NCBI GenBank assembly: GCA_900548675.1
Contig: URLJ01000005.1
Coordinates: 4,412 to 68,411 of the forward strand
Reading direction: 5' to 3'
Length of the DNA: 64,000 bases
DNA from: an uncultured Mollicutes bacterium
GTDB taxonomy: Bacteria > Bacillota_I > Bacilli_A > ML615J-28 > CAG-313
Part shown: positions 1 through 26,946 of the stretch, one piece after another
How the letters are laid out: every line of letters starts with the position of its first letter
Numbering within the stretch: the stretch's first letter is position 1
Notes under the pieces: model-generated
What the model was told of the DNA's origin: nothing
Seen by the model: only the letters and a program-made list of their open reading frames with translations
Database searches by the model: none
Program-made: the position numbers and the translations under genes

Positions 1-1859
1 GACATATTGCAGTTTATCTCGGCTATATCATTGCATTCAACACCAAAATTCGTGTATATAAATTCAGATATTTTTTTCTTTGTAGGGTTCTGATACACTA
101 AAAAGAAATCATTAAATATCTTTTCTTTTGCATTTTTGTCTATTAATGATCCACCTATGCGTAATTTATTTAGATATTGTAAACAATTATATTCACTAAA
201 TAATAAGGACATTTTTGGCAAACAGTAATCAGTTGGTCCTTGAAGATAAGTACATTTATTTTGCATTCTTTTAATAAAATTTGTTGCTGAAGCATCGATA
301 TTTATTACTTCGTTGAAATTCCATGGTCTTATTGGGTCTGGTTTTCTTTCTAGCCAACTAAATTGATTATTATTGGCATTCGAAAGAGGTCCTACATAAT
401 ATGGAATATGGTATTCAAATATCGATACTATTCTTTCTATTCTTGTTAAACCATTTTCTTTTTCTAATAAAAAAGGATGGTATTTGGCTTGTTTATTCAA
501 AATAATTCGTAATTCATATAAATTAAGTTGCATTGGTATAGTAGTATTTTGGCCACTATTTTGTTTTGGCAAAAAATCGCCATTATCAATTTTTTCAATA
601 ATTCTATTAACACTCTCTTGAGCTTCTACATCCTTTATTTCTGCTAATAGTTTTTTTATATATTCTTCAAATTTTTCCTTAGAACAATGACCAAATCTCT
701 TTATTTCACCATTAGAAGAAACACCACCTACATACTTAGAATAATTTGCTTTTTTTTCATCATTATATTCTTTGAAACATTCCTTGTATTTTGCAAGAGG
801 TAGATATGTTTTTATTACTCGTTTCAATTCTTTCAAATCCTTTTGGTGCTTATCGTATGTATTAACCATAGCATTACTAATTGATTCATTGCATTTCTTA
901 GTTTCATCATTTACACCTAATAAATCTAAAAGGTAATAATAGTCCGTAATTAATTTGATGTTATCAACATAATCAAATATTCTTGATAACTCCCTAATCG
1001 TTTTTTTGTTCTCTGTTATTTTTTCTTGTATCTCTTCGTCATCCAATTTGATTTCAGAAGTTTGATAGTTCTCTTCTTTTACAAACGCAAAGTTTTTTGG
1101 ATTAGTTTTACCATAAATAAGCAACTTAATTAAGAGTTCATTCGCAAGTGTCTTCTTCTCCACACCCATTAGTTCTCTTAACTGGTTTTCACGGTCAGAT
1201 TTTGAGCCCTTAGTTAGCATTATATTTTGTAATGTATTATAAAAATTATGTTTTTCAATATCAATGATTTGAAAATATTCTTCATCGTCTTCATATTGAT
1301 TAGCATATTCTTTCAATTCATCGTTGAAGTTTTCAAATATTTCTCTTACTATTTCTGAGTCAGAAGGATTAAATGTTTCTCCTTCATTCAAAAAATGACC
1401 ACGATATTTAATAATGTGATGAATAGCTAAATATAATTCTCTAATATCAGCTCTTTCTTCTTTTTCAAGTAATGCTTTTCTTAAATGGTAAATTGTTGGA
1501 TATTTTTCAAAGTAATCTTTATCAGTATAATTATCATCAAAAAAGGTATATTTATTTTGTAATCTTTTATCTTCTATTTTATAAAATGAATCATTCAATC
1601 TTTGAAAAAAGTTTTCATCTTGCTTTTCAATTTCATTTTTAAATTCTTCTTGTAACCACTCAATTCTTTGTCTTCTTCTTCTAAGTCTTCTTCTTGAGGA
1701 ACGGTTTGTTCTTCTCTCGGCTGCAGTTTGCGCTTCATCAAACATCCTAACACCCCAAAATCTAAAACCATTCTTCTTTACTATTTCCCCATTTTCATCT
1801 ACTAGAGCCCATCCTATTGAGTTAGTCCCTATATCCAATCCTAAATTCAATTCTTTCAT
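1..1859 (-). CDS. cas9: Cas9 (type II CRISPR endonuclease), N-terminal ~620 aa; C-terminus lies beyond the window start
   Basis: Reverse-strand translation starts MKELNLGLDIGTNSIGWALV (RuvC-I motif), continues ...YPTIYHLRK...IKYRGHFLNEG...IPYYVGPL...RKPDPIRPWNFNEV, collinear with SpCas9-like proteins. Start ATG at 1857-1859. The ORF track omits it because no stop falls inside the window. Confidence 0.9.
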   Translation of the reverse strand, partial: MKELNLGLDIGTNSIGWALVDENGEIVKKNGFRFWGVRMFDEAQTAAERRTNRSSRRRLRRRRQRIEWLQEEFKNEIEKQDENFFQRLNDSFYKIEDKRLQNKYTFFDDNYTDKDYFEKYPTIYHLRKALLEKEERADIRELYLAIHHIIKYRGHFLNEGETFNPSDSEIVREIFENFNDELKEYANQYEDDEEYFQIIDIEKHNFYNTLQNIMLTKGSKSDRENQLRELMGVEKKTLANELLIKLLIYGKTNPKNFAFVKEENYQTSEIKLDDEEIQEKITENKKTIRELSRIFDYVDNIKLITDYYYLLDLLGVNDETKKCNESISNAMVNTYDKHQKDLKELKRVIKTYLPLAKYKECFKEYNDEKKANYSKYVGGVSSNGEIKRFGHCSKEKFEEYIKKLLAEIKDVEAQESVNRIIEKIDNGDFLPKQNSGQNTTIPMQLNLYELRIILNKQAKYHPFLLEKENGLTRIERIVSIFEYHIPYYVGPLSNANNNQFSWLERKPDPIRPWNFNEVINIDASATNFIKRMQNKCTYLQGPTDYCLPKMSLLFSEYNCLQYLNKLRIGGSLIDKNAKEKIFNDFFLVYQNPTKKKISEFIYTNFGVECNDIAEINCNM

Positions 1860-1891
1860 AGATTCCTCCTTTATCTTTTAAAGTCATTTTC

Positions 1892-1920
1892 TTGACATAT
1901 CTTTCTTCATTTGATATACT
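1892..1920 (+). promoter_or_regulatory. Near-consensus sigma-70 promoter (TTGACA, 17 nt, TATACT) reading away from cas9
   Basis: TTGACA at 1892-1897, a 17-nt spacer, TATACT at 1915-1920. Confidence 0.55.
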
Positions 1921-1926
1921 ATTAGT

Positions 1927-2000
1927 GTATTTAGCATACCGAGTGCAAATAAGCATTATGTGCGATACTACATGGAGGCTGGTGTCAGCCTATTTTTTTT
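1927..2000 (+). ncRNA. Candidate tracrRNA / small RNA (~74 nt) divergent from cas9
   Basis: Predicted start is ~7 nt after the -10 box. It ends in a hairpin (AGGCTG-GTGT-CAGCCT, 1976-1991) followed by ATTTTTTTT (1992-2000). The internal segment AGCATACCGAGTGCAAATAAGCA resembles the anti-repeat/nexus part of the S. pyogenes tracrRNA (AGCATAGCAAGTTAAAATAAGGC). Upstream and opposite-strand placement relative to cas9 is the type II-A arrangement. The CRISPR repeat is not in the window, so the anti-repeat pairing is untested. Confidence 0.4.
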
Positions 2001-2509
2001 AGTCTTTTTTTGATTTTTACCTTTCTAGTTAATACACATTCGAGACTAACATGGAACTGTTTTTGTAAAAACTCTTCATCAAAATCAATAAACTCCGAAG
2101 GTATAAGAATTTGTGCAGCAAATTCATTTGCCTGCCAATCGATATTTTCATATGATTTACATTCATCTACTTCAACAAAATCGAAGTCTAATATCATTGC
2201 TTGAATAAAATGAAATAATTCATGACATAATGTAAAAGCTGATCTATATATGCCTTCTTCGTACTCATTAATAACTGATTCTTTTATATATATAAAATTT
2301 TCTTTTGGGTTATATATCGCAATAGTTGATTTATCGAGCATTTCATCATCGTCATTAATTATTTGATAAGATAAATATCCCTTTTCAAATAAATCATCAA
2401 TTACTTCTAAGACAGGAAAATAACTGTCTTTTTTTATTTCATAATACGCTCTAAATGTTTCAGCAATTTTTTCAATATCACGTACGCTTAAAGGATTAGT
2501 TTTTATCAT
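1985..2509 (-). CDS. ImmA/IrrE-family zinc metallopeptidase (HEXXH)
   Basis: HELFH motif (LCHELFHFIQ), ~170 aa, overlaps the upstream XRE gene by 14 nt; this is the classic ImmR-ImmA arrangement. Confidence 0.7.
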   Translation of the reverse strand: MIKTNPLSVRDIEKIAETFRAYYEIKKDSYFPVLEVIDDLFEKGYLSYQIINDDDEMLDKSTIAIYNPKENFIYIKESVINEYEEGIYRSAFTLCHELFHFIQAMILDFDFVEVDECKSYENIDWQANEFAAQILIPSEFIDFDEEFLQKQFHVSLECVLTRKVKIKKRLKKIG

Positions 2510-2855
2510 TTTCTAGCACTTCCCTTAATTTTTCTATTAGGTCTTTATCTGCGTTTTTTATTTTTCTTGCAAATAACAGTGTTATTTCTTTTTGGCTTTC
2601 GTTCATTTTTGAAAGTTCTAATGAAACTTTTTCATTAGTTTCTTGTATTACTTCTAACAATTCGCTTTTTTCATTTTCAGTTAAATTATATATATCTGAA
2701 ATTTTTTCTGCATAATTAAGAGGTATGTTTTTTCGCCCTACTTCCATGGCAGATAAAAAAGCAGCACTGATATCCATTTTTTTTGCCATATCTCTAAGTG
2801 AGTCATTTTCTTTTTTTCTTATTGTTCTAATATACTGTCCAAATTTACTTAACAT
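2496..2855 (-). CDS. XRE-family HTH transcriptional regulator (ImmR-like)
   Basis: N-terminal HTH (YIRTIRKKENDSLRDMAKKMDISAAFLSAME), 119 aa, translationally coupled to the ImmA-like gene. Confidence 0.75.
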   Translation of the reverse strand: MLSKFGQYIRTIRKKENDSLRDMAKKMDISAAFLSAMEVGRKNIPLNYAEKISDIYNLTENEKSELLEVIQETNEKVSLELSKMNESQKEITLLFARKIKNADKDLIEKLREVLENDKN

Positions 2856-3024
2856 TTAAATCACCATTTTAATTTTACACTATATTAAATTTATTGTCAA
2901 CTATTTTGGTTTACACTTCGCTATATTTTGACAAATATCAACATTTATAACCATTCCCATAAATAAAAAAGTTTTGTAATAAGCATTTTATTACAAAACT
3001 TTTATTTAATATATAAACTATTTT

Positions 3025-3774
3025 TTACAATTCTTTCAACAACTTTTCAAAAGCATTTGCATTTAGAATTGTATTTGAGACAAAGTTTCCTTTATAAAAA
3101 TTGGCCCAATTATTAATTACGCAAGGGGCATTTTTAGCTTTTTCTAAAGAATCAATTTTTACAAAATTTAACTTGATGTTATTATTTTCAGCAAATTCTG
3201 TTAATTCTTTTATTTCGTATACTACATATGGACATTCATTTGTGTAATAGATAGTAAAGTCATTGCTATCTATTTTCATAAGTTTCGCGGTAGAAGAAAA
3301 CTTTGGAGTTTCGTTATTATCAAATGATAATGCCAAAAGTTCATAATCACATATACTATCTACTACTTTAAAACCAAAGTGTTCAAAGAATTTCTTTTCA
3401 CCCAAAAATGGTTTTTTCTTTTTCGAGCTTAAAGTACAAATACCACTCATTCCTTTTTTCTTGGCATCTTCTATCGCATATTCTAACAATTCTTTGGCGA
3501 TACCTTGTCCCTTAAATGATCCTGCTACCCATAAACAATATATATATAAATAGTTTGCACCATTTACTGGAACCCACGCTGATGATAAGGGTTCATATTC
3601 GATAAAAGTTTTCCCTCTAGCATTTAGCTTTCTGAAAACATGTCCATTAGATAATTTGTCTTTTAACCATTCTTTTTTTGCTTCCACCCCTGTTTGGTGC
3701 TTTTTATCACCGATAGCACAACAGATATGTTCATTATCGATATTCTCTAATGTTAAATTAATATATTCATTCAT
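3025..3774 (-). CDS. GNAT N-acetyltransferase with YoaP-like C-terminal domain
   Basis: GNAT acetyl-CoA motif (VAGSFKGQGIAKELL). Likely start at MNEYINL (3774), which has a GGAG RBS; the ORF track extends to 3810. Confidence 0.65.
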   Translation of the reverse strand: MNEYINLTLENIDNEHICCAIGDKKHQTGVEAKKEWLKDKLSNGHVFRKLNARGKTFIEYEPLSSAWVPVNGANYLYIYCLWVAGSFKGQGIAKELLEYAIEDAKKKGMSGICTLSSKKKKPFLGEKKFFEHFGFKVVDSICDYELLALSFDNNETPKFSSTAKLMKIDSNDFTIYYTNECPYVVYEIKELTEFAENNNIKLNFVKIDSLEKAKNAPCVINNWANFYKGNFVSNTILNANAFEKLLKEL

Positions 3775-4287
3775 TTTAATAAATCTCCACTTATATTTCT
3801 CAAGATACAAGTTAATTATATCATTTTATGATGCTTTTCGTTAGTTTTATGATTATGTTTTAGAAAAATAGTTATTTTTAATTTATCATATTTTAAATTA
3901 TATTCCTTTTAAAAAAACTTCTTTAGTCATTTTACATAATTAATAAGTTATATAATTGGTATAACCTAACTTTAAATATGTTTATCTTGTGTTAAATCCT
4001 TTAAATTTGATTTCTTAGATTTTCTTATAATCAGAACAATTAATAATTATTTCGTTTATCTACCTTCCTTACTTTCAATTGCTAATTATTTAGTTAATAC
4101 TTTCGTTAATATTACTTTTTAAAAAAAGCGGTGGCAATAGTGTCACCGCGAATAATGATTATAAATTTACTTTTCTCCCTTACCTTTATTATTATTGGTT
4201 TCTGCAAACATGCATTGATTTTCAACAAATTTTTTTATAAATTTTCCTTTGGTTACACTATAGGCTATCATAGGTTACCTCCGATTG

Positions 4288-5115
4288 TTATATTATTTTA
4301 TTGCTTTTTTCTTTATTGCATCTCTTACATAATGTTTGTAAATTTTCATATGTTGATTTTCCACCTTTTGAAATCGGATAAATGTGATCTATTTCAAGAT
4401 ATTCTGGATTATATCTTCTATGACACATTCTACATCTATAACCATCTCTTGCATAAATAGAAAATCTCATTTTGTTAGAAACTTTTGCTCTTTCTACGCA
4501 GCATAAAGAATCCCATATTTCTCTATTATTATAAAACCTACCATTTCTATCATTCAATAAATCTATTGTATGGCAAACTTCATATTCACCAAAGGAACAA
4601 CTTTTCCTAGATATTAATCTTCCACCCATATTAACATAACAAAGTATAACATCCAACTTAAATTTTGTTATCGGCTTCAATTGTCTAGTTTTAACTAACT
4701 CTTTTTCAATGCTTATCAATTTATTTACGTTTAATTTTACAGAGTCAATATCAAATAAACCAAATTGTATATTTTTAATATTGTTTAAATACTCAGTGTA
4801 CATATACTGATTATTATTTGCTTTATTAATAACATCTAAATATAATTGCCTATTATTTGGAAACTGCAAATCGTAAACTAAATAATTATAACAAGATACA
4901 CTATCGTACATTTTTTCATTATCATACGTATGAGTTAATTTGGGATTATTAACTACTTCAAAACGATAATTCTTATTAAGTTTAGTTATTTCTTTAATAG
5001 CTTTGCTGTGTGTTTTAACAAAATTATAATATCGTGTGTGAAATAAATAATATGATACTACGATGACTACATTAACTATGATAATAGTCATTACAAATAA
5101 TAGAAACCAAAGCAT
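4288..5115 (-). CDS. Membrane-anchored HNH endonuclease-domain protein
   Basis: N-terminal TM helix (LLFVMTIIIVNVVIVVSYYLF). C-terminal HNH (CRMCHRR...LEIDHIYPISKGGKSTYENLQTLCKRCNKEK). Confidence 0.7.
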   Translation of the reverse strand: MLWFLLFVMTIIIVNVVIVVSYYLFHTRYYNFVKTHSKAIKEITKLNKNYRFEVVNNPKLTHTYDNEKMYDSVSCYNYLVYDLQFPNNRQLYLDVINKANNNQYMYTEYLNNIKNIQFGLFDIDSVKLNVNKLISIEKELVKTRQLKPITKFKLDVILCYVNMGGRLISRKSCSFGEYEVCHTIDLLNDRNGRFYNNREIWDSLCCVERAKVSNKMRFSIYARDGYRCRMCHRRYNPEYLEIDHIYPISKGGKSTYENLQTLCKRCNKEKSNKII

Positions 5116-5687
5116 CTAATCAACCTCCTTCAAATTTATTATACTTTTTTAAATAATGTCTTAAGAGTATCATCTTTTCTTTTCCGATATTCTTTCAGCA
5201 TTTTTTCAAAAAACTACAATTTTTACCTATTATATACATATTATAACATTATTTTTTCTACAACACAAATAAAATTTTTCAAAATAACATATTTTTATAT
5301 AAAAAAACTATGATTATTTCAAAACACATCATAGTCATAATTAATTTTTTCAAAAAAAGTTACTTAGATTATTTAAAAACATTATTTATTGTTGTATATT
5401 GAATATTCCATACATTTTTCGCTTTTTCATCTATATTCGTGTATAATCTAAACTGAAATATTAAATGAACAGTTTAGATAAAAACACGATTTTTTTATTT
5501 ATGATATACTTTTATTGAAGTTATATCAGCTTCATTTAATATTTTATTATACCATATAGTTTTTTTGATTCAATCCAATCATATTCCAATTTACTCTAAG
5601 AACCTTAGAGTTTTTGTTTTTTATCCATTTTTTTAATTACTAAATTAAAAGAGGACACTTAAGTCCTCCATTAGTTTGATATATTAA

Positions 5688-7007
5688 CTAGTTTAATGTA
5701 TGGTCAAATTTATAGATGTACCCAAATTCATCTACTAATTCAAATGAGTATCGCTCTCCTAAATAAACTTGTTTAGAACTTATCTCAGGACCAACTTTTT
5801 TTATGATGCAGTAGATAGTTTCTTCTTGGACACCTTTGAATTTATTTTTGAATTCTCCCAAAGTAGAAAAATTTGTTTCTTTAACTAATTGGTTGTTAGC
5901 ATCATATTCATATATTATATATTGTTTTGGTGAATACTCATGAACAATATTTAATTGATAATTCATTTTAGTGCTGTAACTAGGATACTTTACATCTTTA
6001 GAGTTTTTTAATTTTTCACTTATTACATACCCACTCACATCTATTTTTGTAGTTTTAGAAAATAATTGTGGTTCTACTGATTGAACCAGTGTAAAACCTT
6101 TTTCTGAGTTATCGATTACAAATATGTTCACTTTTTTATTCAGTAAAACCCTAATTACTAATTCAATATCAATACTTACAACTCCATTATCGTTTTGAAG
6201 AAAATCATAATGATAATCAGCAAAATAATTATGTACGACAAGGGTTTGATTATAGTCACTACCAAGTGCAATTATATAGTATGGGTATTCGTCATCGCTA
6301 GGTTTATCAAATCTATCATTATTGTCCCATGAAGTACCCCAAAGAGGAATACTTGTAGGACTAGTATCATTTAGTGTAATTACAAAACCATATATAACAT
6401 AATCATCTAAATATTCTTCAATAACTATAAGTTTTTCAAAACTATACTCTTTATGTGTCACATTATACATTCCCGAAAGTTTAACATAATATCCTTTTTT
6501 TAAAAAATTGTAGTTAATCTCGTTGCCATATCTATCTAGTTTAAATTTTAATTGATTCCAAACCACTTCATATTGATTCAAACTATCAGACACTATTACC
6601 TTATCGCTTTCTATTTTCACAATTTCTCCACGAGTACTAAAATCTTGAAAAATAGGTTTTTCATTATTTATCCTATTAACTCGCCCAATTATGAATAAAA
6701 TTACAAATGTCAAAATCAAAATTGAAATTGCTCCAACAATTATTGTGATTTTTAAATGTTTTTTATTGTGTTCAACTTCTTGATTATTCTTAAGCGTAAT
6801 GCATTTTATTTCTTCTTCAGTAATCAAATCATTAACCGCCAATCCAAAAGTCGCCGCAATATTATTAAGCATATCAATACTTGGAATACCTCTATTTTGT
6901 TCCCATTTAGCAATTAATGATCTTGAGACAAATAGTTTGTTCGCCATTTCTTCTTGAGTAAGATTATTATCTACTCTAATTTTTTTTATTTTTTCATAAA
7001 ACTTCAT
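5688..7007 (-). CDS. Membrane-bound XRE-family HTH regulator with large extracytoplasmic domain
   Basis: N-terminal HTH (LTQEEMANKLFVSRSLIAKWEQNRGIPS), a single TM (ITIIVGAISILILTFVILFII), then ~330-aa unknown domain. Confidence 0.65.
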   Translation of the reverse strand: MKFYEKIKKIRVDNNLTQEEMANKLFVSRSLIAKWEQNRGIPSIDMLNNIAATFGLAVNDLITEEEIKCITLKNNQEVEHNKKHLKITIIVGAISILILTFVILFIIGRVNRINNEKPIFQDFSTRGEIVKIESDKVIVSDSLNQYEVVWNQLKFKLDRYGNEINYNFLKKGYYVKLSGMYNVTHKEYSFEKLIVIEEYLDDYVIYGFVITLNDTSPTSIPLWGTSWDNNDRFDKPSDDEYPYYIIALGSDYNQTLVVHNYFADYHYDFLQNDNGVVSIDIELVIRVLLNKKVNIFVIDNSEKGFTLVQSVEPQLFSKTTKIDVSGYVISEKLKNSKDVKYPSYSTKMNYQLNIVHEYSPKQYIIYEYDANNQLVKETNFSTLGEFKNKFKGVQEETIYCIIKKVGPEISSKQVYLGERYSFELVDEFGYIYKFDHTLN

Positions 7008-7498
7008 AAGATAGTTTCCTCCTCGTCAGTATCATTATATTGTATAACTTATATATATTCAAGATACTATTTGAAATGATACGATTTATATCATTATATA
7101 GTTATTAGCTACATTTCAATTTTATCAAATTGTTTATATTTTTTTAGTATTTTAAATAAGAAATAATGTATTTTCGCAAACACTTTAATAAAAGTTAGTA
7201 TTTTTTCAAAATTATTTTAAATCATTGCGTTGAAGTATTTCAAATTACATTAAACATTAAAAACAGGAACCAGTTTGATTTACTGAATCCTGTTATTTAT
7301 TAAAAATTCTTATTATTTGGTATGATTCATTCTATAATTTGATTTTGCAAATGATATATAAGTTTTTATTGATATTATTAAACTTTAATACTTTATCTTT
7401 TGAATTTGATACTATACTTTTTCAATGATTAATAAAACGAATTACAACATTTTTTCAAATATGTAATTTTCTAATTAGGAAATAATAAATGAAGTTTT

Positions 7499-17749: not shown

Positions 17750-17795
17750 CGAAATCCCCCCAAATTTGAATAATTTGCCTTATTGTCGCTTCATA

Positions 17796-18335: not shown

Positions 18336-18799
18336 AATAAATCTTTTTGCTCATCTATCCAACTCAGCCATTTTATAACAGTACTTGCTCTTCTTTTGCA
18401 TACCTCATAATTATCTATTTTATAGAGAATACTTATCATTTGAGATATTTCATCAATTGTTGGATTTGAATTATAATAATAACGCATGAAAAACACTTCG
18501 CCAAAAACAGGCATTGATACAATTAGTTGAGATAGTTTTAAAACCCTTGTATCATTTGAAACACTTTTAAGTTCTTTTGCGACCTCTGTGAACTGTCTTT
18601 TTAATATTAAACCTAAAAATTCACATGCGCTCAAATAATAAGATATTTGTCTATCGGTTCCTAAACTGAGCAACTCTTTAAGGTAGTCGTTGTCTTTTAA
18701 TTTATCCTCATTAACTTCTAATAATTTGATGATCTTTTCAAAATCATTTGCTTGTGGAAATGGAACACTATTTCTTTCTTCCATAAATAAGCACCTCAT
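18332..18799 (-). CDS. Hypothetical protein, translationally coupled to the Dam methyltransferase
   Basis: 155-aa ORF. Overlaps the methyltransferase 3' end by 32 nt. Confidence 0.4.
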   Translation of the reverse strand: MRCLFMEERNSVPFPQANDFEKIIKLLEVNEDKLKDNDYLKELLSLGTDRQISYYLSACEFLGLILKRQFTEVAKELKSVSNDTRVLKLSQLIVSMPVFGEVFFMRYYYNSNPTIDEISQMISILYKIDNYEVCKRRASTVIKWLSWIDEQKDLL

Positions 18800-19616
18800 C
18801 TACTTTTTTTCTCTCTTTCTTACTATTAATGTTTCTATTTGCTTTTATAGTTTTAGTAGAATATACTATTTCATAATTATCAGATTCATTAAATAATTCT
18901 CTAACAAACTTAGTATCATTATTTGATATTAAAACAAAGCAACCCTTTGATATTAATCTATCACACGTTTTTTTCAAGCGGATTAAATCATCATGAGTAA
19001 AGCCTTCTTTAACATAATTAACAAAACCGGAAATTTCATAATCATATGGTGGGTCAAAATATACCCAATCTCCAGTTTTAGCAGTCTTTGTAGTTTCAAC
19101 AAAATCTTCTGATAATATTTTTATCTTATTTGTGTTCAAATAATTAGAGATTTCTATTAAATTGTTTTCATCACATATTAAAGGATTAACATATCTTCCA
19201 ATAGGAGTATTAAAATAACCATTTTTATTTACTCTGTATAAACCATTATAGCAAGTTCTATTTAGATAAATTGTTCTAGCTGCTTTTTCTACATCTGTCA
19301 TTGATCCATATAAGTATGGATCTCTGTCTAAGCTTCTAATATAATAGTAATAATCTTTGCAATGTCTACTTGCATGCTCTTTTAGCTTGGTAATTAAATC
19401 GTTGACATTATCTTTTATAACCATATATGCGTTGATGATTTCCGAATTTAAATCATTTATTATGCAATAATTATGTTTTAATTCAAAAAATACTGAGCCT
19501 CCACCTAAAAACGGTTCAAAATACCTATTATCACCAATTTTATCATTGGTTACAAATTCTTTGATATATGGTATCAACTGTCTTTTACCACCGGCCCATT
19601 TTAAAAATGGTTTCAT
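18768..19616 (-). CDS. Dam-family (D12 class) N6-adenine DNA methyltransferase
   Basis: KWAGGKRQL N-terminal motif and DPPY catalytic motif. Confidence 0.85.
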   Translation of the reverse strand: MKPFLKWAGGKRQLIPYIKEFVTNDKIGDNRYFEPFLGGGSVFFELKHNYCIINDLNSEIINAYMVIKDNVNDLITKLKEHASRHCKDYYYYIRSLDRDPYLYGSMTDVEKAARTIYLNRTCYNGLYRVNKNGYFNTPIGRYVNPLICDENNLIEISNYLNTNKIKILSEDFVETTKTAKTGDWVYFDPPYDYEISGFVNYVKEGFTHDDLIRLKKTCDRLISKGCFVLISNNDTKFVRELFNESDNYEIVYSTKTIKANRNINSKKERKKVDEVLIYGRKK

Positions 19617-19627
19617 ACGCTCACTCC

Positions 19628-22135
19628 TTATTCGAATTCCATTTCATCATTTCCACCAAAAATGAAATTGCCCTTTCTTATAGATTTTTCCATAAGTTCC
19701 TCTTTTTTCTTTAACGCTTTATAGATATCATAATCTTTGGATTTTTTCATTTCATCATCATAATAATTCAAATATATATAATAATTTGTTTTATCTGAAT
19801 CTTTTAGGCCAAGTCTATGAATTCTATCTCTAGATTGAAGGTATTGGTATAAGTTATAATTTAATTCAAGATAATGTGCATCATGGCACGCTTTATGTAA
19901 AGATACAGATTCCGCTAATGTTGCAGGATTTGTTACCAAAATTTGCAATGTACCATAGTTAAACTCATCTATTATTTTTTCTCTTTCAGATTGTTCTGTA
20001 TCTCCATAAATCGTTTTTACATAATATCCTTTATCTTTTAAAACCTTATAGATCACATTGATCGTGTCTACGAAGTTGCACCACACGATTGACTTTCTAT
20101 TGTTTTTTTCCAATATAGACAAAAACTTACATATCTTACTGGTATAATAAATTTCTCCATCTATATCTGTATTTTTTTCATTAAATTCAATACTTTGATT
20201 ACATTTAAATGGAACACAACCTATTTCTACTAATTTAATTGTGCTTTCAAACGAATTCATCTTTTTTGAAATAATTTGATTATATAGTTCTCTTTCATAA
20301 CTGTTTGTTTGAACTTGAATTAAATTATCATGTTCTGGGAGAGGTACGTTCAAATCTTTTTTATCTACTCTCACAAAATATGGATATAAAATATGGTTTA
20401 AATCAGAGTTCTGTAATCCAGTCTTTCTATATCTTGAATCATCAGATTTCAAAGTTGATTCAAACATTTGAAAATATGATTGTGCATAATCATCATGTAA
20501 TAGAGACATCATATTAAATAGATCTATATAGCCGTTTGGCAACGGGGTACCTGTCAACGCCATTCGATATCTAGTTTTATAAGCTATTTCTTTAAGACAT
20601 GCATATTTCAAACTGTCTATTTTTTTTATTCTATGAATCTCATCAAAAACAATCATTGTCTTTGAATCAACCAACTTTAGTAGTTCATTTTTCACTTTTG
20701 TAATAAGCTCATAATTCACTATAATAAGCCTTGATGTAGAGTAGTCGTGTAGCAACACATCGCTTTTTTCACTAATGCTATCGTTATTAATTAAACATAA
20801 TGGTGCATGATTATCGGACTCAAACGAAACCGCATTATATTCATCTTTCCAAGACTTAGCACAATTGACTGGACCAATAACAAGCAATTTATCTACATAA
20901 TTTTGATTTAGACTGCATTCATTAGCCAAATATTCAAATGCCCCAAGAACTGTTGCGGTTTTTCCACTTCCAGGAACAGAAAAGTTAAGTGATTTTTCCA
21001 TCTTTACCAAATGGATTGCTGACTGTATCTGACTATCTTTAAGCGGACGTTTAATTAAAGAATTAATACCAGCTTTCAATGATGCAAAATCAGAAGTTGA
21101 CGTATAATCAGTTTTCTTTATTTCAGTTCCTTTTACGGATAATTCATCATAATTTCTATAATGCAAATCAAAATAATCTTTTGCTTTCTTTGTTAAGTAG
21201 AAAGAAATACTATTGTTGTTACATAGTTTTTCAATTTTAAGCTTAAAATCCATCAATTCAGTTATACGTTTGATGTTTTTAAGTTTAAAGCATTTTTCTT
21301 CTTTACTTAAAAAATTAGAGGTTGAAAACTCACCAATATTTTTATAATTAAGCAAAGGTATCATATCGATGTTTGATGTTAAAATTACTTCTCCAAATTC
21401 ATTAAAATCAAATCTGATATAGTTAGGATTTTTAATGTATTGTTTAATTTCTTCATAATCAATTTTTTCTATCATTTTGGTAATAATAGGGTCTGGTAAA
21501 TCAACAGTTATAACATCATCCTTCTCATTATTCCAAATATTATCAAACAGATTATTGAGCTCATTTATGCTGTTTAATTCTCTTTTGCTTGGATTATCCC
21601 AGTCGATAGTAACTTGAAAAGCCTCATCATTAATTCCTGCCGCTGCTTCTGTGAAATTAGGCGAACCAATGTAAACTAGATTATGTATTCCATCTGATAT
21701 AATTCCAAACTTATCATGAACAATACCCGAAATTTTATATACCAATTTTACATCTAACTTTCCAACCGCAATTAAATAAGAAAATAAGTTAACATCATCT
21801 TGCTCACAAAGCTCGTTAATTCTTTCAACAATAATTGTTTTAGATAGTGCTGTTGTTAAAGAACTTTTTTCAGAATACCCTTTATTAATTTGCTTAATTG
21901 TTTCAGAATCTATATCTTCTGACAAAATAAGTTGCATATACCCGTCATTTTTTATAAATTCAGATATTCCTTTTTTTAGATACTTAAAAATTCCAACCGA
22001 AAAATAAGCTGTAATTCTCTTATATAGATTGGCATTCAACAATGCTTTTGAATAAAAGTCTTCAACATCTTTCTGGTTAAAATAAATAGTATTAAAATTA
22101 ATTTTTGACAAATCTTTATTCATTTTCGTTTTCAA
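19628..22135 (-). CDS. PLD-family (HKD) nuclease fused to an SF2 (SNF2/ResIII-like) helicase
   Basis: HKD motif HDKFGIISDGIHNLVYIGSPNFTEAA. Walker A NFSVPGSGKTAT, DExH MIVFDEIHRIK, a C-terminal helicase domain with QSRDRIHRLG. Confidence 0.8.
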   Translation of the reverse strand: MKTKMNKDLSKINFNTIYFNQKDVEDFYSKALLNANLYKRITAYFSVGIFKYLKKGISEFIKNDGYMQLILSEDIDSETIKQINKGYSEKSSLTTALSKTIIVERINELCEQDDVNLFSYLIAVGKLDVKLVYKISGIVHDKFGIISDGIHNLVYIGSPNFTEAAAGINDEAFQVTIDWDNPSKRELNSINELNNLFDNIWNNEKDDVITVDLPDPIITKMIEKIDYEEIKQYIKNPNYIRFDFNEFGEVILTSNIDMIPLLNYKNIGEFSTSNFLSKEEKCFKLKNIKRITELMDFKLKIEKLCNNNSISFYLTKKAKDYFDLHYRNYDELSVKGTEIKKTDYTSTSDFASLKAGINSLIKRPLKDSQIQSAIHLVKMEKSLNFSVPGSGKTATVLGAFEYLANECSLNQNYVDKLLVIGPVNCAKSWKDEYNAVSFESDNHAPLCLINNDSISEKSDVLLHDYSTSRLIIVNYELITKVKNELLKLVDSKTMIVFDEIHRIKKIDSLKYACLKEIAYKTRYRMALTGTPLPNGYIDLFNMMSLLHDDYAQSYFQMFESTLKSDDSRYRKTGLQNSDLNHILYPYFVRVDKKDLNVPLPEHDNLIQVQTNSYERELYNQIISKKMNSFESTIKLVEIGCVPFKCNQSIEFNEKNTDIDGEIYYTSKICKFLSILEKNNRKSIVWCNFVDTINVIYKVLKDKGYYVKTIYGDTEQSEREKIIDEFNYGTLQILVTNPATLAESVSLHKACHDAHYLELNYNLYQYLQSRDRIHRLGLKDSDKTNYYIYLNYYDDEMKKSKDYDIYKALKKKEELMEKSIRKGNFIFGGNDEMEFE

Positions 22136-23408
22136 TTTGTAACTTAAGCGTTCTTACCTTGTTTTCTATTTCTGTTAATGCATTTTTTATCTCTTCCAAT
22201 TTTTGATTTGCTATAGTGTTTGATGCATTGATCAAAGGTTTAACATTAACATTATCAAGGCTTTTTAATGCATTTTTACATTCTTTAAGAGGAATATCTA
22301 TTTGGTTCTTTGCAACTTGCTTTGAAACAACTTTTTCATAGTTTTCTTTGTCCTCAGTTGCTTCATCTGAATTTCTTAATTCTTTAATCGATTCATTAAA
22401 ATCATCTATATCAGTTGAATCTTCGATGATTGTTTGAATCTTGTCTCCAATTGTTTCTTTATGCTCATCAATTAGTTTTTTAGTTTCAGCTGAATCCTTG
22501 AAAACTTTCTTAATTAAACCATCTCTTAAATTTTGGGTAATTAAAGCAACATCTAAAGTTAATAAATAATCAAAAAATAGATGTTTTCTTTCTTGCTTTT
22601 CTAATTCAGTCAGATTTTTACCATCGTTCATAAAATATGTTACAAGCGGTTCAAGAGGCCAGTAAATTTTCATATCTTCAGCAATTTGATACTCACCACT
22701 TTTTCCTATGTAATCCAAGAATTCATCAACCAATTTACATGTTTTGCATATCTTACTTACATCACCTGCGGTAGTTCCATTACCTAATAGTTCAGCAATT
22801 GATGTATAATCAAAGCTATTTTCTTTTTCTATTAACCAATATATGCTCATATTTTTGTTAATAACATTGTATCCAACCTTCTCATCTGCACCAAATTGTA
22901 CTCTTAATTCATATTCTTTTAGCAACTGCCTTGTAATCTGCTTGCCATCTACTTTAATTATTGCAGCTAAAAAATATGCGAATCTTTCGTCACTTGGAAA
23001 TTCTCTATGTAAACGTCTAATACAAGTAAATCTTCTATTTCCGTCTACAACTGTTCCATCGTCTAGTACAACCCCAGGTTCTATCTGCCCAAACTTTTCA
23101 ATATCTCTTTTTGTAGAAAGATTCCTTTCTTCGTTAGTAGACCATATTAAATTTTCAACTTCATCATTATACTTTTTTGGATCAATGTTCTTTAGGGTTG
23201 CAAGGTTTGTGTGCTCTTCGTTTTCAAATCTTTTAGCCTCCATGAACATTCTTCCATTCGTTGGATTATACACTAGGATATCAACAGGAATTTTATACAC
23301 ATCATATTCTTGGGAACTATTTTTTAAAACTATAGTTTTTTGCTTAGCTGTACGTTTTATTCCCCACTCTTGATAATTATCATTTACATTTAAATTAAGA
23401 ATCTCCAT
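22116..23408 (-). CDS. DUF262 / ParB-like nuclease-NTPase domain protein with coiled-coil C-terminus
   Basis: FGQIEPGVVLDDGTVVDGNRRFTCIRRL matches the DUF262/ParB DGQQR-type motif. The C-terminal region is helical, coiled-coil-like. Confidence 0.65.
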   Translation of the reverse strand: MEILNLNVNDNYQEWGIKRTAKQKTIVLKNSSQEYDVYKIPVDILVYNPTNGRMFMEAKRFENEEHTNLATLKNIDPKKYNDEVENLIWSTNEERNLSTKRDIEKFGQIEPGVVLDDGTVVDGNRRFTCIRRLHREFPSDERFAYFLAAIIKVDGKQITRQLLKEYELRVQFGADEKVGYNVINKNMSIYWLIEKENSFDYTSIAELLGNGTTAGDVSKICKTCKLVDEFLDYIGKSGEYQIAEDMKIYWPLEPLVTYFMNDGKNLTELEKQERKHLFFDYLLTLDVALITQNLRDGLIKKVFKDSAETKKLIDEHKETIGDKIQTIIEDSTDIDDFNESIKELRNSDEATEDKENYEKVVSKQVAKNQIDIPLKECKNALKSLDNVNVKPLINASNTIANQKLEEIKNALTEIENKVRTLKLQIENENE

Positions 23409-25842
23409 TTAAAATCTCCTCCATTTCCTTTTCATAATATTCTTTTGTTAAATATATTTTTTCCGAAGACTTCGGACAATAATAACCCATTTCAGACAAT
23501 TCAGAGTTACTAAATTCTTTCTTTATTTTATATTCATCCATCATTTTTTCTTTTAAATCTATTAATGTTAGTGAACCATATTCATTAAGAATGTCATCCA
23601 ACAATATCTTCATAGATAGTTCTGATTTAGAAAAAATAATTGTTCCCAATGAATTAAGATAATTTACACTTCTAATTGTCATAACCAAGTATGATACTAT
23701 TGCTTTCGTATCAAATGAATATAACAAGTCTTTATATTCACTGTTAGTATCTAATACTTTTTTAAACTCATATGAATCTAAATAATCGTCGATAGTATAT
23801 ATCCCATTATTATCAAGATTATCTTCAATATCTTTTTTTAAATTCTTAACAACACACGTTTGTTCTCTTTTAACTACATTTAAATAATTATTATCAGATA
23901 TTTTTACTACCAGGCATTCATCGACTAGATCAAACATCTTGTAGTAAAAGTATTCTTTGTTAGATATTTTAGAAAGTTCATTTTCGCTTAAAATATAATC
24001 TAGATCTAATAATTCATTTTGAACCGCTTCCAACCTATTGTTAAATAAATTCGAATAAATTGCCGTATTAGTTTTTATATAACCTATCTTTTTTAGGTTG
24101 TTAGAATTTAATAATAGTTCAACTTTTTTCGTGTCTGAGCCATATCTGATTTCTAGCTTGTCTCGCAAATAATTGTATCCAATACATTTATGTTCATTCA
24201 AGTCTTGGCAAAGTCGTTCATAATCTTCTTTTGGTATCTCATCATCTAAAGATATCAGACCGGTCGAATTTTTATATCTATTTATTACATCACAAAAATT
24301 TGCTAAAACAGAGGCTTCTTTTAATCCCGTTACATCACGTATGTGAGAAAGATAATCTTCAACAGTACAAGGTAGTTCCATATCCAAAATCATATTTTCT
24401 ATGAATGCTTCTTTGTCTACTCCTAGCGATACTATAACTGGATTTCTTACAAATTCTATTTTTCTACCATATTTTGGGCCAAATAATCTTTTCATCAATG
24501 CAAAAAGTTCAAATTCATCATTGATAAAATTTTTATTACATAATTCCTTGTTATTATCATAAAAAAATGAAACCGACCCATAGCCATAAAAATTATCTAG
24601 ATACTTATCCATAGCTTCTATGAAATCAAACGACAAAGAATCTTCTTTATAAATCAAGAATTTTCTTCCTGTAACAGAAATAAATAATCTTTGGTGTTCG
24701 ATTTTTCTAGTTTTAATTTTAATATCATCAATGTTCTTTCCTATGCAAAGCTCTTCACTATAAATATTTAATTTTGATAAAAACTTGTTATAATCATCCG
24801 CAATATCATCAACACAAAAACTATGAAGAGAATTACTAATTACATATTTTTTAAATAGCGTAATAAAATCAAAACTTACTAATTCATTTCCAATAATTAT
24901 AAGTTTGTGTTTTCTTAATACTTTTTTGCCAAGATCACTATCAAATAAGTTTAGATCATTAATATAGTCAATTGAATTCTTTAATGGTTTTATTTCGTAT
25001 TTTAAGAAGATATATTCTATTAAGACATAATCAGTTAACCCTACAAGGGCGAATTCTTCTTTTTCAAAATCATAAATGCTCAAGAATTTATAATATTTAA
25101 TTTCATTATAAAAAATAGGATACGAGCTTATTCTTTTCTTTATTATTTGCCTAACTCTTTCTCTAGTTATAGACATTTCTTGAGCTATAGATTCCAGCGT
25201 TGCTCCTCGGCATTTTTTTAATACCAATTCATCCCTCGGATCGCTTGATTTTAATAAATAATCACCGATCTGCTCTTTTCTAATTTTATAGCCATCAAAC
25301 GTATTACTTATCTTATTTTCAGCAATTAATTCATCTATTATTGAATCAAATTCATATACACTCACTAAAGGATATTTATTAAGTATTTTTTCTTTTAGTA
25401 CGTTATTCAAAATAGGTTCATTTTGCTTGATTTGATTTAATATTTCAGTTTTAGGACTAATCTTTATTACAGAAGATAATTCATTAATTGCAAATAATAT
25501 TTTATCGTATGATCCCTTTTGTAATTTTATCTTCTCAGAAAATTCTTCAAATTTAGAAGATAGTAAATCGCAAGTATCATAATTTTCTTTTATTTTTTCA
25601 ATTATAAATATATTGATGTCAAAGAATAGCAAACAATATATAGAATAGTAATTTGATTGCATCAAGTATAGATCATTGATTATATTCTCTGCTGTTGGTG
25701 TTTTTCCTAAAACATTGTATATATCATCTTTTTCGATAATTTTATCTTCTATTACTGACAAAATTCTCAATAAAGTCCTACTTGAGTGTCCTTTCTCAAT
25801 CAAGTTAAGTAACTTTATGTTTCGTAGTTTTATTTCATCCAT
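23395..25842 (-). CDS. Large hypothetical protein (815 aa) with internal sigma-70 region-4-like HTH
   Basis: GATLESIAQEMSITRERVRQIIKKR resembles the sigma-70 region 4 HTH. The rest is unrecognisable. Overlaps the DUF262 gene by 14 nt. Confidence 0.5.
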   Translation of the reverse strand: MDEIKLRNIKLLNLIEKGHSSRTLLRILSVIEDKIIEKDDIYNVLGKTPTAENIINDLYLMQSNYYSIYCLLFFDINIFIIEKIKENYDTCDLLSSKFEEFSEKIKLQKGSYDKILFAINELSSVIKISPKTEILNQIKQNEPILNNVLKEKILNKYPLVSVYEFDSIIDELIAENKISNTFDGYKIRKEQIGDYLLKSSDPRDELVLKKCRGATLESIAQEMSITRERVRQIIKKRISSYPIFYNEIKYYKFLSIYDFEKEEFALVGLTDYVLIEYIFLKYEIKPLKNSIDYINDLNLFDSDLGKKVLRKHKLIIIGNELVSFDFITLFKKYVISNSLHSFCVDDIADDYNKFLSKLNIYSEELCIGKNIDDIKIKTRKIEHQRLFISVTGRKFLIYKEDSLSFDFIEAMDKYLDNFYGYGSVSFFYDNNKELCNKNFINDEFELFALMKRLFGPKYGRKIEFVRNPVIVSLGVDKEAFIENMILDMELPCTVEDYLSHIRDVTGLKEASVLANFCDVINRYKNSTGLISLDDEIPKEDYERLCQDLNEHKCIGYNYLRDKLEIRYGSDTKKVELLLNSNNLKKIGYIKTNTAIYSNLFNNRLEAVQNELLDLDYILSENELSKISNKEYFYYKMFDLVDECLVVKISDNNYLNVVKREQTCVVKNLKKDIEDNLDNNGIYTIDDYLDSYEFKKVLDTNSEYKDLLYSFDTKAIVSYLVMTIRSVNYLNSLGTIIFSKSELSMKILLDDILNEYGSLTLIDLKEKMMDEYKIKKEFSNSELSEMGYYCPKSSEKIYLTKEYYEKEMEEILNGDS

Positions 25843-25845
25843 AAG

Positions 25846-26046
25846 TTACTCCACCTCAATATTAATGTTCTCTTTTTCAAAATAATATTTTAATAATCTC
25901 TTTATTTTCATTGTAGGTTCATGAGAACCAGCTTCCCACCTATTAACAGTTGCAAAACTAACATTAAAAAGAGCAGCAAATTCTGCTTGAGTTAAACACA
26001 TTCTTAATCTTAATTTCTTAATTGCTTCACTATATTTCATAGTCAA
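25846..26046 (-). CDS. Small XRE-family HTH regulator at the head of the operon
   Basis: LTQAEFAALFNVSFATVNRWEAGSHEP. Stop is 4 nt from the 815-aa gene start. A TATAAT -10 box and GAGGG RBS lie upstream. Confidence 0.75.
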   Translation of the reverse strand: MTMKYSEAIKKLRLRMCLTQAEFAALFNVSFATVNRWEAGSHEPTMKIKRLLKYYFEKENINIEVE

Positions 26047-26443
26047 CCCTCACAAACGGAAAAATATATAATAATTATAACACTTTTATATAAAAATTGC
26101 TAGTAAGCAGCTGATAATTCAATATAATTTTTCATTTTTTCTCAAATTAATAAAATATAAATCGCTCTGCAAACCGATGAGGCACAAATTATAACCATCA
26201 AATTTTTATATTAATTGTCTCTAAGCAAATAAGTACGCCTTGTCATTGATGCCTTTAACCACATTGAGAAGCGTCTTTCATTGATGTAATTTTAATCAAT
26301 TTATTGGAACTTTTCTTTTCAAATATGTGCTAGCGAGACTTGAACCCTATACCTATAAATGTATCTATTGATGTTGCTTATGCTCCTATAGGTAAAGTTA
26401 CATCAATATTTTCATAAATATTAATTGAAAATACCTATTTTCA

Positions 26444-26550
26444 AAATGCAACCCCCTCTAAATTTTGCTCTTTGAAAATGCAACCCCTTCTTTTTTGGCA
26501 TAAAAAAATGCAACCCCTAGCGTTTTGAACCTTTAGAATTGCAACCCCAT
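26444..26550. repeat. Four direct repeats of AA(A/T)TGCAACCCC at 30-32 bp spacing (iteron-like)
   Basis: Copies begin near 26446, 26478, 26508 and 26538. Confidence 0.7.
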
Positions 26551-26702
26551 AAATTAATGATTTGATTTATGCTATTAAAAATGATGTTAAAAATAAGGCA
26601 AATTTCTTATTGGTGGGACTTGTACTCTGGTGATTTTATCTTTTTTTACCCTAAAAACAAAAAAATTGTGACAGATTTCTCGTATCACAATTCTAGTTCT
26701 TT

Positions 26703-26779
26703 TATGGGGCGAATGAAGGGATTCGAACCCTCGAGTGACGGAGCCACAATCCGCTGTGTTAACCACTTCACCACATTCG
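26703..26779 (-). tRNA. tRNA-His (GTG)
   Basis: Cloverleaf with anticodon loop TTGTGGC, TTCGAAT T-loop, 8-bp acceptor stem including G-1:C73, encoded CCA. Confidence 0.85.
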
Positions 26780-26780
26780 C

Positions 26781-26856
26781 CATGGCAGGGGATGCAAGAG
26801 TCGAACTCGCATTGACGGTTTTGGAGACCGGTGTACTACCATTGTACGAATCCCCT
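26781..26856 (-). tRNA. tRNA-Trp (CCA)
   Basis: AGGGGAT acceptor, anticodon loop CTCCAAA, TTCGACT T-loop, encoded CCA. The CCA anticodon argues against UGA=Trp recoding. Confidence 0.85.
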
Positions 26857-26946
26857 ATAGATTGCTTTTATATTATATCAAAAATTAACTTTTATTGCAA
26901 GTGTTTTGGTTAAAAAAGAAAAGGCACGTAAATTTACGTGTCTTTT

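Follow-up and report, generated by a model that had tools for sequence, protein, structure and literature searches.

How does a stack of candidate anti-phage genes come to adjoin the tRNA-His gene of an uncultured gut bacterium, and where does the stack begin and end? The question is raised by a 64 kb stretch (the window) of contig URLJ01000005.1 from an uncultured Mollicutes bacterium, a sequence of low guanine-plus-cytosine (G+C) content, between 0.24 and 0.34. Comparison with metagenome contigs, designated here by L-numbers, showed that the stack is strain-variable and that the variable region comprises positions 3889-26704 (22.8 kb), which differ among strains that are otherwise approximately 99% identical. 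We consider it probable that this defence hot spot downstream of tRNA-His was built by accretion and that its newest layer is an integrative element, here called E1. From the junctions described below we infer that E1 occupies positions 12102-26704 (14.6 kb) as one discrete insert.

The outer limits follow from two samples of strains. On the tRNA side, an exact-sequence look-up of the potD-like protein yielded ten contigs from pig and human gut metagenomes, and all ten are identical to the window in potD, tRNA-Trp and tRNA-His. Three agree with the window over everything they hold beyond potD, two of these ending within tRNA-His, and the other seven change at window position 26703, two bases past the encoded CCA of tRNA-His, to three unrelated sequences. 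These begin with an Xre-type helix-turn-helix (HTH) gene, with an intact large serine recombinase gene of 522 amino acids, or with an HTH gene followed by an open reading frame (ORF) in which a C5-methyltransferase-like FAGxGG motif was recognized by eye. On the cas9 side, a look-up of the M78 protein gave ten contexts (L011-L020), all of which contain window positions 1-3888 at 98.8-100% identity (blastn), with the match ending at 3888. Beyond this point the contexts divide into those with the HNH allele of the window and those with a NERD allele, behind which lie IS21 and BREX, phage-like nucleotide-metabolism genes, or other content. The left limit of the strain-variable region is therefore placed at 3888/3889, where the HNH-type and NERD-type alleles part. 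The systems found at this locus vary by strain and include BREX, NERD and type II/III restriction-modification (R-M). The island occurs, for example, in the metagenomes SRR5580390-392, ERZ1304599 and ERZ943914.

The original prediction described a composite island of defence and mobility genes extending from cas9 to the tRNA-His/tRNA-Trp pair. Its right end is borne out by the sharp boundary at 26703, but its start at cas9 is not, as cas9, the HTH and M78 genes and the GNAT-YoaP gene all lie in the conserved segment 1-3888. Because both flanks are conserved and strains diverge at 3888 and 26703, the variable region is 3889-26704 and not 1-26900. Base composition agrees with the distinction that had been drawn between island and flank, the G+C content being 0.268 within 3889-26703 compared to 0.319 in the right flank. 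Related strains thus defined the boundaries but did not supply an empty site: a scan of genome_contigs with the potD-like protein gave relatives of at most 41% identity among the matches listed, and no species-level empty site. With the whole variable region as query, megablast gave no match to phages, and among plasmids the sole match was to the lipoprotein gene described below.

The insertion point is immediately 3' of the tRNA-His CCA. Both tRNA genes, tRNA-His(gtg) at 26705-26780 and tRNA-Trp(cca) at 26783-26856 on the minus strand, were called by ARAGORN and by Rfam (61.8 and 58 bits), and an Rfam search of 25800-27000 returned nothing beyond these two. Directly next to tRNA-His lies the left-end module of E1 (26443-26704, minus strand), which consists of an A-tract/hairpin/T-tract at 26658-26704 (hairpin -15.7 kcal/mol, z -4.4), a T-arm-like motif, an A/T-rich stretch and four iterons, GGGGTTGCAWTTT, at 26443-26547 with a spacing of about 31 nucleotides (nt). 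Over the tRNA-proximal 260 nt or so the iteron reads GGGGTTGCA, in four copies. The three other tRNA-His variants are diverged forms of the same end architecture, each with its own hairpin and iterons. Further inward, at 26326-26347 on the minus strand, is a tRNA-3'-end-like fragment, GGGTTCAAGTCTCGCTAGCACA, with T-arm and acceptor-like parts that neither ARAGORN nor Rfam called; a related motif occurs in L007, about 75 nt past tRNA-His, and inside the conserved end module.

That the tRNA-proximal block can move is seen in contigs L112 and L113, found through P0023, a near-identical variant of the 430-amino-acid protein encoded in E1. In these contigs, which represent another genome context, tRNA-Gly(tcc), part of an Asp-Arg-Pro-Gly tRNA array, is followed directly by the block 17820-26704 with 99.07% identity. 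In L112 the identity with the window begins precisely past the CCA, reading ...CCA^TAAAAGAACTAGAATTGTGATACGAGAAATCTGTCACAATTTTTTTG (a caret marks a junction here and below). L129 contains 1.9 kb that match this end module and the beginning of the six-gene cassette behind it at 96.8% identity, and here the preceding sequence is a tmRNA-type 3' end.

To what extent this end belongs to a larger family was judged with an exact 35-nt hairpin query over the metagenome collection, which gave 29 contigs, a sample biased to close relatives of this end. The 35-nt stretch stands directly after a ...CCA end in 24 of the 29. ARAGORN identified the preceding genes as tmRNA (three times), tRNA-Ser(cga), tRNA-Ser(tga), tRNA-Gly(ccc), tRNA-Gly(gcc) and tRNA-His, the tRNA-His cases coming from two related species with a Trp-His / Ser-Glu tRNA layout; further upstream ends comprise an apparent tRNA-Leu and several truncated tmRNA-like ends. 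Behind the tmRNA genes the 35-nt stretch is 100% conserved while those genes are themselves strongly diverged. The conserved part measures about 260-290 nt and again consists of A-tract/hairpin/T-tract, T-arm-like motif, A/T-rich stretch and four or five iterons, GGGGGTTGCA, spaced 31-32 nt. In most of the contigs L117-L145 that are long enough, the module is 77-94% identical and the alignment usually stops at the last iteron. The cargo past it varies: L141 carries a type III R-M system, L127 a double Dam methyltransferase, HNH, SNF2 and an ABC-3C system. The hairpin had no match in viral_contigs.

The other end of E1 we place at 12101^12102. Non-tRNA DNA that ends in iterons, then (T)GTATTAAAA, 12-16 nucleotides and ACA^ stands ahead of the hairpin in five of the 29 contigs; L117, L123 and L139 have the right-end motif before a hairpin element. 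Where 0.06 matches would be expected by chance, the window contains one match to the pattern built from such contigs, at 12098-12127 (minus strand). The inner junction reads ...TAGAGGGTGCA-N10-TAGAGGGTGCATTGTATTAACAAAACTTACCTTTCACA^TTAAAGAAGCAATAGGTTTGATACATTTGTTATCAAGCCTTTTTTC; to the right of the caret is a terminator-type hairpin with a CA^TWAR start like the tRNA-adjacent ones. The right end of E1 (12102-12231, minus strand) thus comprises the right-end motif TGTATTAACA-N13-ACA^ at 12102-12131, two iterons TAGAGGGTGCA at 12129-12159 and three exact GTCACR repeats at 12194-12217. Abutting it is a terminator-like hairpin at 12056-12101 (minus strand, -15.5 kcal/mol, z -3.0) with no tRNA in front, which a terminator scan finds at the same site and which we read as the former flank of tRNA-His (B' side). 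When the 64 kb were scanned in an unbiased manner for [A/C]CA^TWAR...T5 and ranked by hairpin energy, three strong sites emerged, at 26705 (tRNA-His, -12.3), 33032 (tRNA-Glu, -11.5) and 12102 (-10.6), the next-best site reaching only -2.9.

Further features tie the two ends together. Iterons of the GGGT(T)GCA type occur in the same orientation at both, the GGGTGCA at 12.1 kb resembling GGGTTGCA at the tRNA end; in other elements of the family the iterons differ in sequence. Each of the two junctions reads [C/A]CA^T, and a long repeat is absent. In one metagenome a single Logan contig of 14,558 nt corresponds to window positions 12132-26689, and the Logan contigs from either side break 30-31 nt from both junctions; these breaks fit the junctions, because assembly-graph branch points are expected there with k = 31. 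An inner boundary at 12131/12132, as the contig breaks would place it, was rejected, since other elements have the iteron-GTATTAA-ACA unit uninterrupted at their right ends and 30 nt equals the k-1 of the assembler.

The inner boundary near 12.1 kb that had been predicted is therefore present, as a right-end motif by the recombinase gene that abuts the tRNA-less hairpin, and the idea of successive insertions that have since been immobilised is sustained by the composite region, the junction at 12101^12102 and the three stops in the recombinase frame. The expectation of att-like direct repeats fared less well: the tRNA-His 3' end has no direct repeat in the window (probes of 26 and 17 nt, up to three mismatches, matched the gene only), nor did a repeat search around the island reveal one, and it is a different junction signature that marks 12101^12102 and 26704^26705.

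Close to the inner junction, on the plus strand, lies a large serine recombinase pseudogene of 481 codons (12500-13945) with Resolvase, Recombinase and Zn_ribbon_recom domains, preceded by a SHOCT-domain ORF (12280-12516, plus strand; Pfam SHOCT_2, E 4.5e-11). The three-domain recombinase thus sits at the element edge, its start 400 nt from 12101^12102. As predicted, it is a pseudogene: three in-frame stops (TGA 12566, TGA 12734 and TAG 12983) interrupt a frame without frameshift that is 45% identical over 385 amino acids to the intact recombinase of L003 and keeps the catalytic motif YARVS. In L156, which is 97.7% identical across the junction, the three stop codons are replaced by R, R and W, and the gene has its own frameshift near codon 285. 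As L156 shares the junction but differs in lesions, the arrangement of E1 against the old flank predates the divergence of the two lineages and the gene decays independently in both. A recoded genetic code is an unlikely reason for the stops, given that they are of two kinds, TGA and TAG, and that L156 encodes R, R and W in their place. In L149 and L150 gene calls run through the two TGA stops (a 161-amino-acid ORF on identical DNA), probably a genetic-code-4 call and no real difference.

The serine recombinase of E1 is proposed as its integrase because such genes lie within 130-400 nt of three family-type junctions, namely those of E1, of L123 (where the gene ends about 130 nt away) and of L003 (an intact gene 290 nt from the tRNA-His junction), and because tandem tmRNA-gene islands in Dehalococcoides are driven by a serine recombinase (PMC3146451). 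The relatives that viral_contigs contains share 47% identity with the recombinase and added no information. The P-side motif GTATTAACA-N13-ACA resembles the T-loop-to-end geometry of tRNAs, GTTCGAATC-N12-CCA, a likeness that would explain the broad target range.

These observations suggest the following history. E1 would have inserted between the tRNA-His CCA and the terminator of the tRNA operon itself, now at 12056-12101, its large serine recombinase catalysing the insertion; one half of the target of this enzyme may be the generic T-loop-to-CCA end, and many tRNA and tmRNA genes would then be open to it. E1 would have brought its own terminator for the tRNA operon, and the recombinase would then have decayed, fixing the element. 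The segment 3889-12101 would be earlier tRNA-downstream content, since reshuffled gene by gene.

Several points weigh against this reconstruction. No family-type junction motif was found at the left limit 3888. Three contigs served to define the right-end pattern post hoc, with a chance of about 6% for one match window-wide, and both ends of a hairpin-type element occur together in one contig in the window configuration only. The predicted empty site, in which tRNA-His-CCA is joined to 12101 (...CATTCGCCCCA^TTAAAGAAGCAATAGGTTTG), was absent from the retrieved contigs and from viral_contigs, and searches that included viral_contigs did not return the predicted circular junction (...ACTTACCTTTCACA^TAAAAGAACTAGAATTG) either. 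Homology between L112 and the window fades within the final 100 nt of the lipoprotein gene (to about 17820), with no sharp edge. Most module copies have no recombinase nearby, and none was found in the available sequence of L127 (13 kb of cargo) or L112 (6 kb past the common block). Iterons on both arms are more typical of tyrosine-integrase attP sites, and to our knowledge large serine recombinases do not need iterated accessory sites.

Some of these points suit an explanation in which the interior is turned over by homologous recombination through the conserved flanks (cas9/GNAT on one side, tRNA/potD on the other) after DNA uptake, with no site-specific integration. The interior is exchanged as a whole between flanks that are 99% conserved; it is a mosaic in which the gene for a 439-amino-acid protein is shared with a NERD-type strain; the L112-type block ends gradually within the lipoprotein gene; and 3889-26704 holds no intact recombinase. 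Recombination through the flanks cannot, however, account for a block that stands after tRNA-Gly and tmRNA genes, which share no flank homology, nor for a base-exact CCA junction in many contexts or the displaced terminator-like site at 12102. As the origin of the element we therefore regard it as unlikely. Since the block common to L112 fades inside a gene, homologous exchange also shapes these elements, and recombination through the flanks is likely a real secondary process, not the source of E1.

A second alternative holds that the module of about 260 nt is a small non-autonomous repeat, or a common terminator region of tRNA operons, that the defence genes are ordinary hot-spot content and that the recombinase is an unrelated passenger. 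It would fit the fact that at least a dozen contigs cease to be conserved after the last iteron and have different cargo beyond, the rarity of recombinases near module copies, and the case of L117, which conserves just 225 nt and beyond them has opposite-strand ORFs that by their sequence look like host genes. The tRNA-Glu of the window, too, has a CCA^TTAA-hairpin-T-run and a T-arm-like fragment yet is not this element. What makes this account improbable is that the module moves together with cargo, 8.9 kb of it near-identical to another tRNA and at least 1.9 kb to a tmRNA-type end, that the 35-nt stretch remains unchanged behind strongly diverged tmRNA genes, and that E1 has related iterons at both ends and assembles as one unit. 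As a separate observation on tRNA-Glu, the 44 nt that follow it (33033-33076, preceded by CCA) recur at 33784-33828 (preceded by ACA) with 37 of 44 positions identical, and the roughly 750 nt between these repeats contain an apparent Xre-HTH gene fragment, recognized by eye, and a T-arm-like motif; 33033-33828 has the look of a very small, decayed insert of generally similar type.

Least probable of all is insertion at tRNA gene (tDNA) ends by an integrase acting in trans, such as the tyrosine integrase of a helper or phage, with the iterons as arm-type sites and the recombinase derived from a nested element: repeated sites on both inferred attP arms do resemble the arm-type sites of tyrosine integrases, tRNA and tmRNA genes are their classic targets (PMC4383910), and the shortage of nearby recombinases would be accommodated, but no tyrosine integrase is among the recorded domain hits in the tRNA-His-side, cas9-side and E1 contexts or in the L127 and L141 proteins scanned, E1 is not flanked by the duplicated tRNA 3' segment that islands of this type normally leave, and serine recombinase genes lie near the three family-type junctions.

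We thus return to E1 as an element with its own serine recombinase, and to what it carries. All ORFs in 13942-26040 are on the minus strand, in agreement with the single array that had been predicted for 13.9-26.0 kb. The recombinase-proximal part encodes an HNH nuclease (13942-14313; HNH E 8e-6), which overlaps the gene for a prokaryotic viperin, pVip (14279-15103). The viperin assignment rests on PADLOC pVip (E 5.8e-68), on NCBIfam viperin_w_prok with 228.6 bits against a cut-off of 180, and on the CxxxCxxC motif CNFHCKHC; in the contigs the protein is called as 267 amino acids, apparently through a different start codon. Next are a putative nucleotidyltransferase (15472-16137) with a weak CD-NTase match (PADLOC Cyclase, E 9e-6) and an Abi2/HEPN-like protein (16134-16820) whose Abi_2 score of 25.6 bits equals the Pfam cut-off.

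These are followed by a protein of 291 amino acids (16874-17749), which has no match in Pfam, PADLOC, NCBIfam or PDB sequences. It has 36 homologues, none of them with a Pfam domain, and in their alignment a D55...E71-x-K73 motif is invariant, by which it is possibly a PD-(D/E)xK nuclease. The cyclophilin-like lipoprotein gene (17796-18335; Pfam Cyclophil_like2) separates this gene from the cassette; positions 17811-18111 are 87.5% identical at the DNA level to a gene on the Mycoplasmopsis arginini record NZ_LR215045, which hints at gene flow with Mollicutes.

The remainder of E1 is a six-gene R-M-like cassette (18332-26040, minus strand), delineated by domains, structure models and recurring gene order. 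Read from the tRNA side, it encodes a 64-amino-acid HTH protein (25846-26040; domain scan), an 815-amino-acid tandem winged-helix protein (23395-25842; structure model), a 430-amino-acid ParB-like protein (22116-23408; structure model and fold matches), an 835-amino-acid HKD (PLD)-SNF2 helicase (19628-22135; Pfam and PADLOC), a Dam-type (D12) N6-adenine methyltransferase of 282 amino acids (18768-19616; Pfam and PADLOC) and a DUF7226 protein of 155 amino acids (18332-18799; Pfam). The family of the 815-amino-acid protein comprises 22 matches, all unannotated. Its model (predicted local distance difference test score, pLDDT, 88) shows a chain of about 10 winged-helix/HTH units with only weak tandem-winged-helix fold matches, and residues 205-238 correspond to a sigma-70 region 4 HTH. 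The model of the 430-amino-acid protein (pLDDT 90) matches ParB, KorB, pNOB8-ParB and PadC, with E 4.6e-4 to the ParB N-domain 6t1f; together with the DGNRR motif, which is invariant in the alignment, the model identifies it as a predicted ParB/Srx-fold protein with a long helical tail. In the 835-amino-acid protein an N-terminal HKD domain (PbeA hidden Markov model, E 1.7e-56) is fused to an SNF2 helicase. The catalytic motifs of the cassette in the window are intact (HxK...D...GSxN, GSGKT/DEIH and DPPY).

The gene order 815/430/HKD-SNF2/D12 methyltransferase/DUF7226 recurs in L101, L102-L105, L161 and L162-L165, at 38-86% identity and in unrelated contexts, whereas the small HTH gene ahead of it is called in window-type contigs and L161-L165 only. 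The gene that follows the cassette differs by lineage (L101-L105, L112, L161-L165), being Mrr_cat, Macro, AAA, AIPR or the lipoprotein, and this slot may be an exchangeable accessory or effector position. The ParB-like gene in the L162-L165 version occurs in 370 index blocks of the contig collection, and the cassette is not in PADLOC v2 or in Pfam-level annotation. The cassette most likely works in an R-M-like manner, in which self DNA would be marked by the Dam-type enzyme, DNA loading or sensing would fall to the ParB-like and multi-winged-helix proteins, and unmarked DNA would be cut by the HKD-SNF2 motor-nuclease.

Closest to this cassette among described systems are PbeABCD (CxC-ABC/DndE) and the Type-2 BREX-related systems, which similarly place an HKD/SF2-helicase effector by an N6-adenine methyltransferase (PMC10853773; PMC12839542). 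The partners differ. Beside the cassette there is no CxC ABC ATPase or DndE, the PbeA-like protein being the only PbeABCD component present, and by the definition of Type-2 BREX-related systems in PMC12839542 the cassette has no DUF499/BrxC-like ATPase and no DUF3780, and its methyltransferase is of the D12 and not the PglX type. In their stead stand the ParB-like protein, the 815-amino-acid tandem winged-helix protein, the Dam-type methyltransferase and DUF7226. As to a DISARM core, DUF1998 is absent, and DrmD and DrmA were matched only weakly, by helicase-C (E 4e-10 to 2e-6).

Segment 3889-12101, on the far side of the inner junction, is treated as older, reshuffled hot-spot content and not as a second delimited element. 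Its genes are all on the minus strand in the order that follows. At 4288-5115 lies the gene of a membrane-anchored HNH nuclease of 275 amino acids (Pfam HNH, E 7e-15), in place of which other strains have a NERD gene. The 439-amino-acid HTH and transmembrane protein (5688-7007; Pfam HTH_19) is encoded by the sole gene of the older segment also found in a NERD-type strain (L014 against window 5545-7300, 97.3%). A 199-amino-acid protein (7499-8098) has no match. The SF1 (RecD-like) helicase of 909 amino acids (8689-11418), which is RecD2-like, corresponds to the PADLOC candidate system PDC-S53 with E 8.5e-274, residues 11-904 covering profile positions 5-895 of 900 and hence its full length. A 60-nt intergenic stretch upstream of this gene (8404-8463) recurs at 86.7% in L121 and L126, about 2.1 kb downstream of hairpin-type ends. 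Finally, 127 amino acids at 11437-11820 are a remnant of IceA, an NlaIII-type restriction enzyme (Pfam ICEA, E 2.7e-18, a partial match to a 218-position profile). Taken together, the stack would give a layered, predicted anti-phage immunity from pVip, the Abi-like pair, the PDC-S53 helicase and a methylation-protected HKD-SNF2 restriction cassette.

Most of the gene identities in the original prediction are supported by Pfam and PADLOC: cas9, the ImmR/ImmA-type HTH/M78 pair, GNAT-YoaP, the membrane HNH protein and the RecD-like helicase, and within E1 pVip with its HNH partner, the methyltransferase and the PLD-helicase. The labels HEPN(Abi2) and nucleotidyltransferase stand as weak assignments. 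Two others do not hold. The 430-amino-acid protein named DUF262 has no Pfam match even at E 10, its best hit being ddrB-ParB at E 0.05, and its modelled fold is of ParB type; the 291-amino-acid protein named Mrr-like has no database match, and hhalign against the Mrr_cat protein of L101 gave a probability of 0.4%. That nearly every gene is related to defence or mobility was a generous statement, as GNAT-YoaP, the lipoprotein and the 199-amino-acid and 439-amino-acid HTH-membrane proteins have no demonstrated link.

The conserved left flank, likewise on the minus strand, begins with the 5' part of cas9 (1-1856, 618 codons, the gene leaving the window), recognized by Cas9_REC (E 1e-87), the bridge helix and the RuvC-I motif DIGTNSIGWA; L011-L016 hold the full cas9 of 1389 amino acids with cas1, cas2 and csn2. 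Directly upstream of cas9 in all ten contexts is a pair consisting of an M78/ImmA-like peptidase gene (1985-2509; Pfam Peptidase_M78) and an Xre-type HTH gene (2496-2855; Pfam HTH_3), across which PADLOC matches capP, capH and RmrA; the pair (1985-2855) may place cas9, or else the GNAT gene beside it, under control that responds to damage or phage. The GNAT-YoaP acetyltransferase gene (3025-3810; Pfam YoaP and Acetyltransf_1), found in every context, is the last gene of this flank. To the left of the window, past CRISPR-Cas, L012 and L016 carry a PLD-DEAD-DUF3427 helicase, a NUDIX protein and a GIY-YIG/ResIII helicase. Since the same contigs have cas1, cas2, csn2 and these helicases there, the defence neighbourhood reaches further left than the window. 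On the opposite side, window positions 35400-40400 form a second patch of low G+C content (0.27), with a tetranucleotide distance as high as that of the island, and hold an HTH gene, an acetyltransferase gene and the gene of a 485-amino-acid protein without known identity; this patch may be another accessory segment.

Among known kinds of mobile DNA, classical tDNA islands and the Dehalococcoides ssrA islands are closest to what is described here, the differences being the position of the junction, the absence of a tRNA-end repeat and the breadth of targets. Similar to classical tDNA islands (tyrosine integrases; Islander), the locus combines landing at a tRNA or tmRNA 3' end with variable content, lower G+C content and tandem arrays. 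Unlike them it has no displaced identical tRNA 3' fragment; the tRNA gene is unsplit and the insert starts past the mature 3' end. A tyrosine integrase was not found in the island by Pfam scans of all ORFs in 1-26900, and Phage_integrase is not among the recorded hits in related contexts. The Dehalococcoides islands, whose recombinase DsiB is a CcrB-like large serine recombinase, are likewise accreted in tandem downstream of the tmRNA gene, with the recombinase at the edge and variable cargo, and some of them lack or lose the integration module and become fixed (PMC3146451). Their insertion is in the T-loop of the tmRNA gene with a 20-bp ssrA direct repeat, whereas here the junction follows the CCA without such a repeat, many tRNA and tmRNA genes serve as targets, the end module combines a hairpin with iterons, and the cargo is defensive. 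SCCmec, compared here by recombinase family only, resembles E1 as we read it in having a large serine recombinase that acts on the 3' end of a conserved housekeeping gene, in tandem accretion and in variable cargo; its target is rlmH (orfX) and not a tRNA or tmRNA gene, and ccrA and ccrB act as a pair. With other defence islands at conserved anchors the locus shares the clustering of CRISPR-Cas, R-M, viperin, Abi-like and candidate systems that vary by strain, and it differs from these hot spots in that one layer is delimited to the base and its end sequence is traced across genomes.

Beyond the locus itself we propose, tentatively, that the module marks a family of defence-cargo elements whose recombinases read a generic T-loop-to-CCA end, insert after any mature tRNA or tmRNA 3' end, each bring their own terminator and stack in tandem; separately, and with the same reserve, that the six-gene cassette may be an unnamed, widespread R-M-like system. 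We know of no description of such promiscuous, structure-guided target choice for serine integrases. The delimitation to the base of one accretion event in a defence hot spot is rarely possible, and the cassette is a candidate for experimental testing. If the proposal is true, these elements would represent integrases with a natural target that is present in every bacterial genome, the tRNA and tmRNA 3' ends, at which the gene is left undisrupted, and this would bear on the assembly of defence islands beside tRNAs and on recombinase-based genome engineering.

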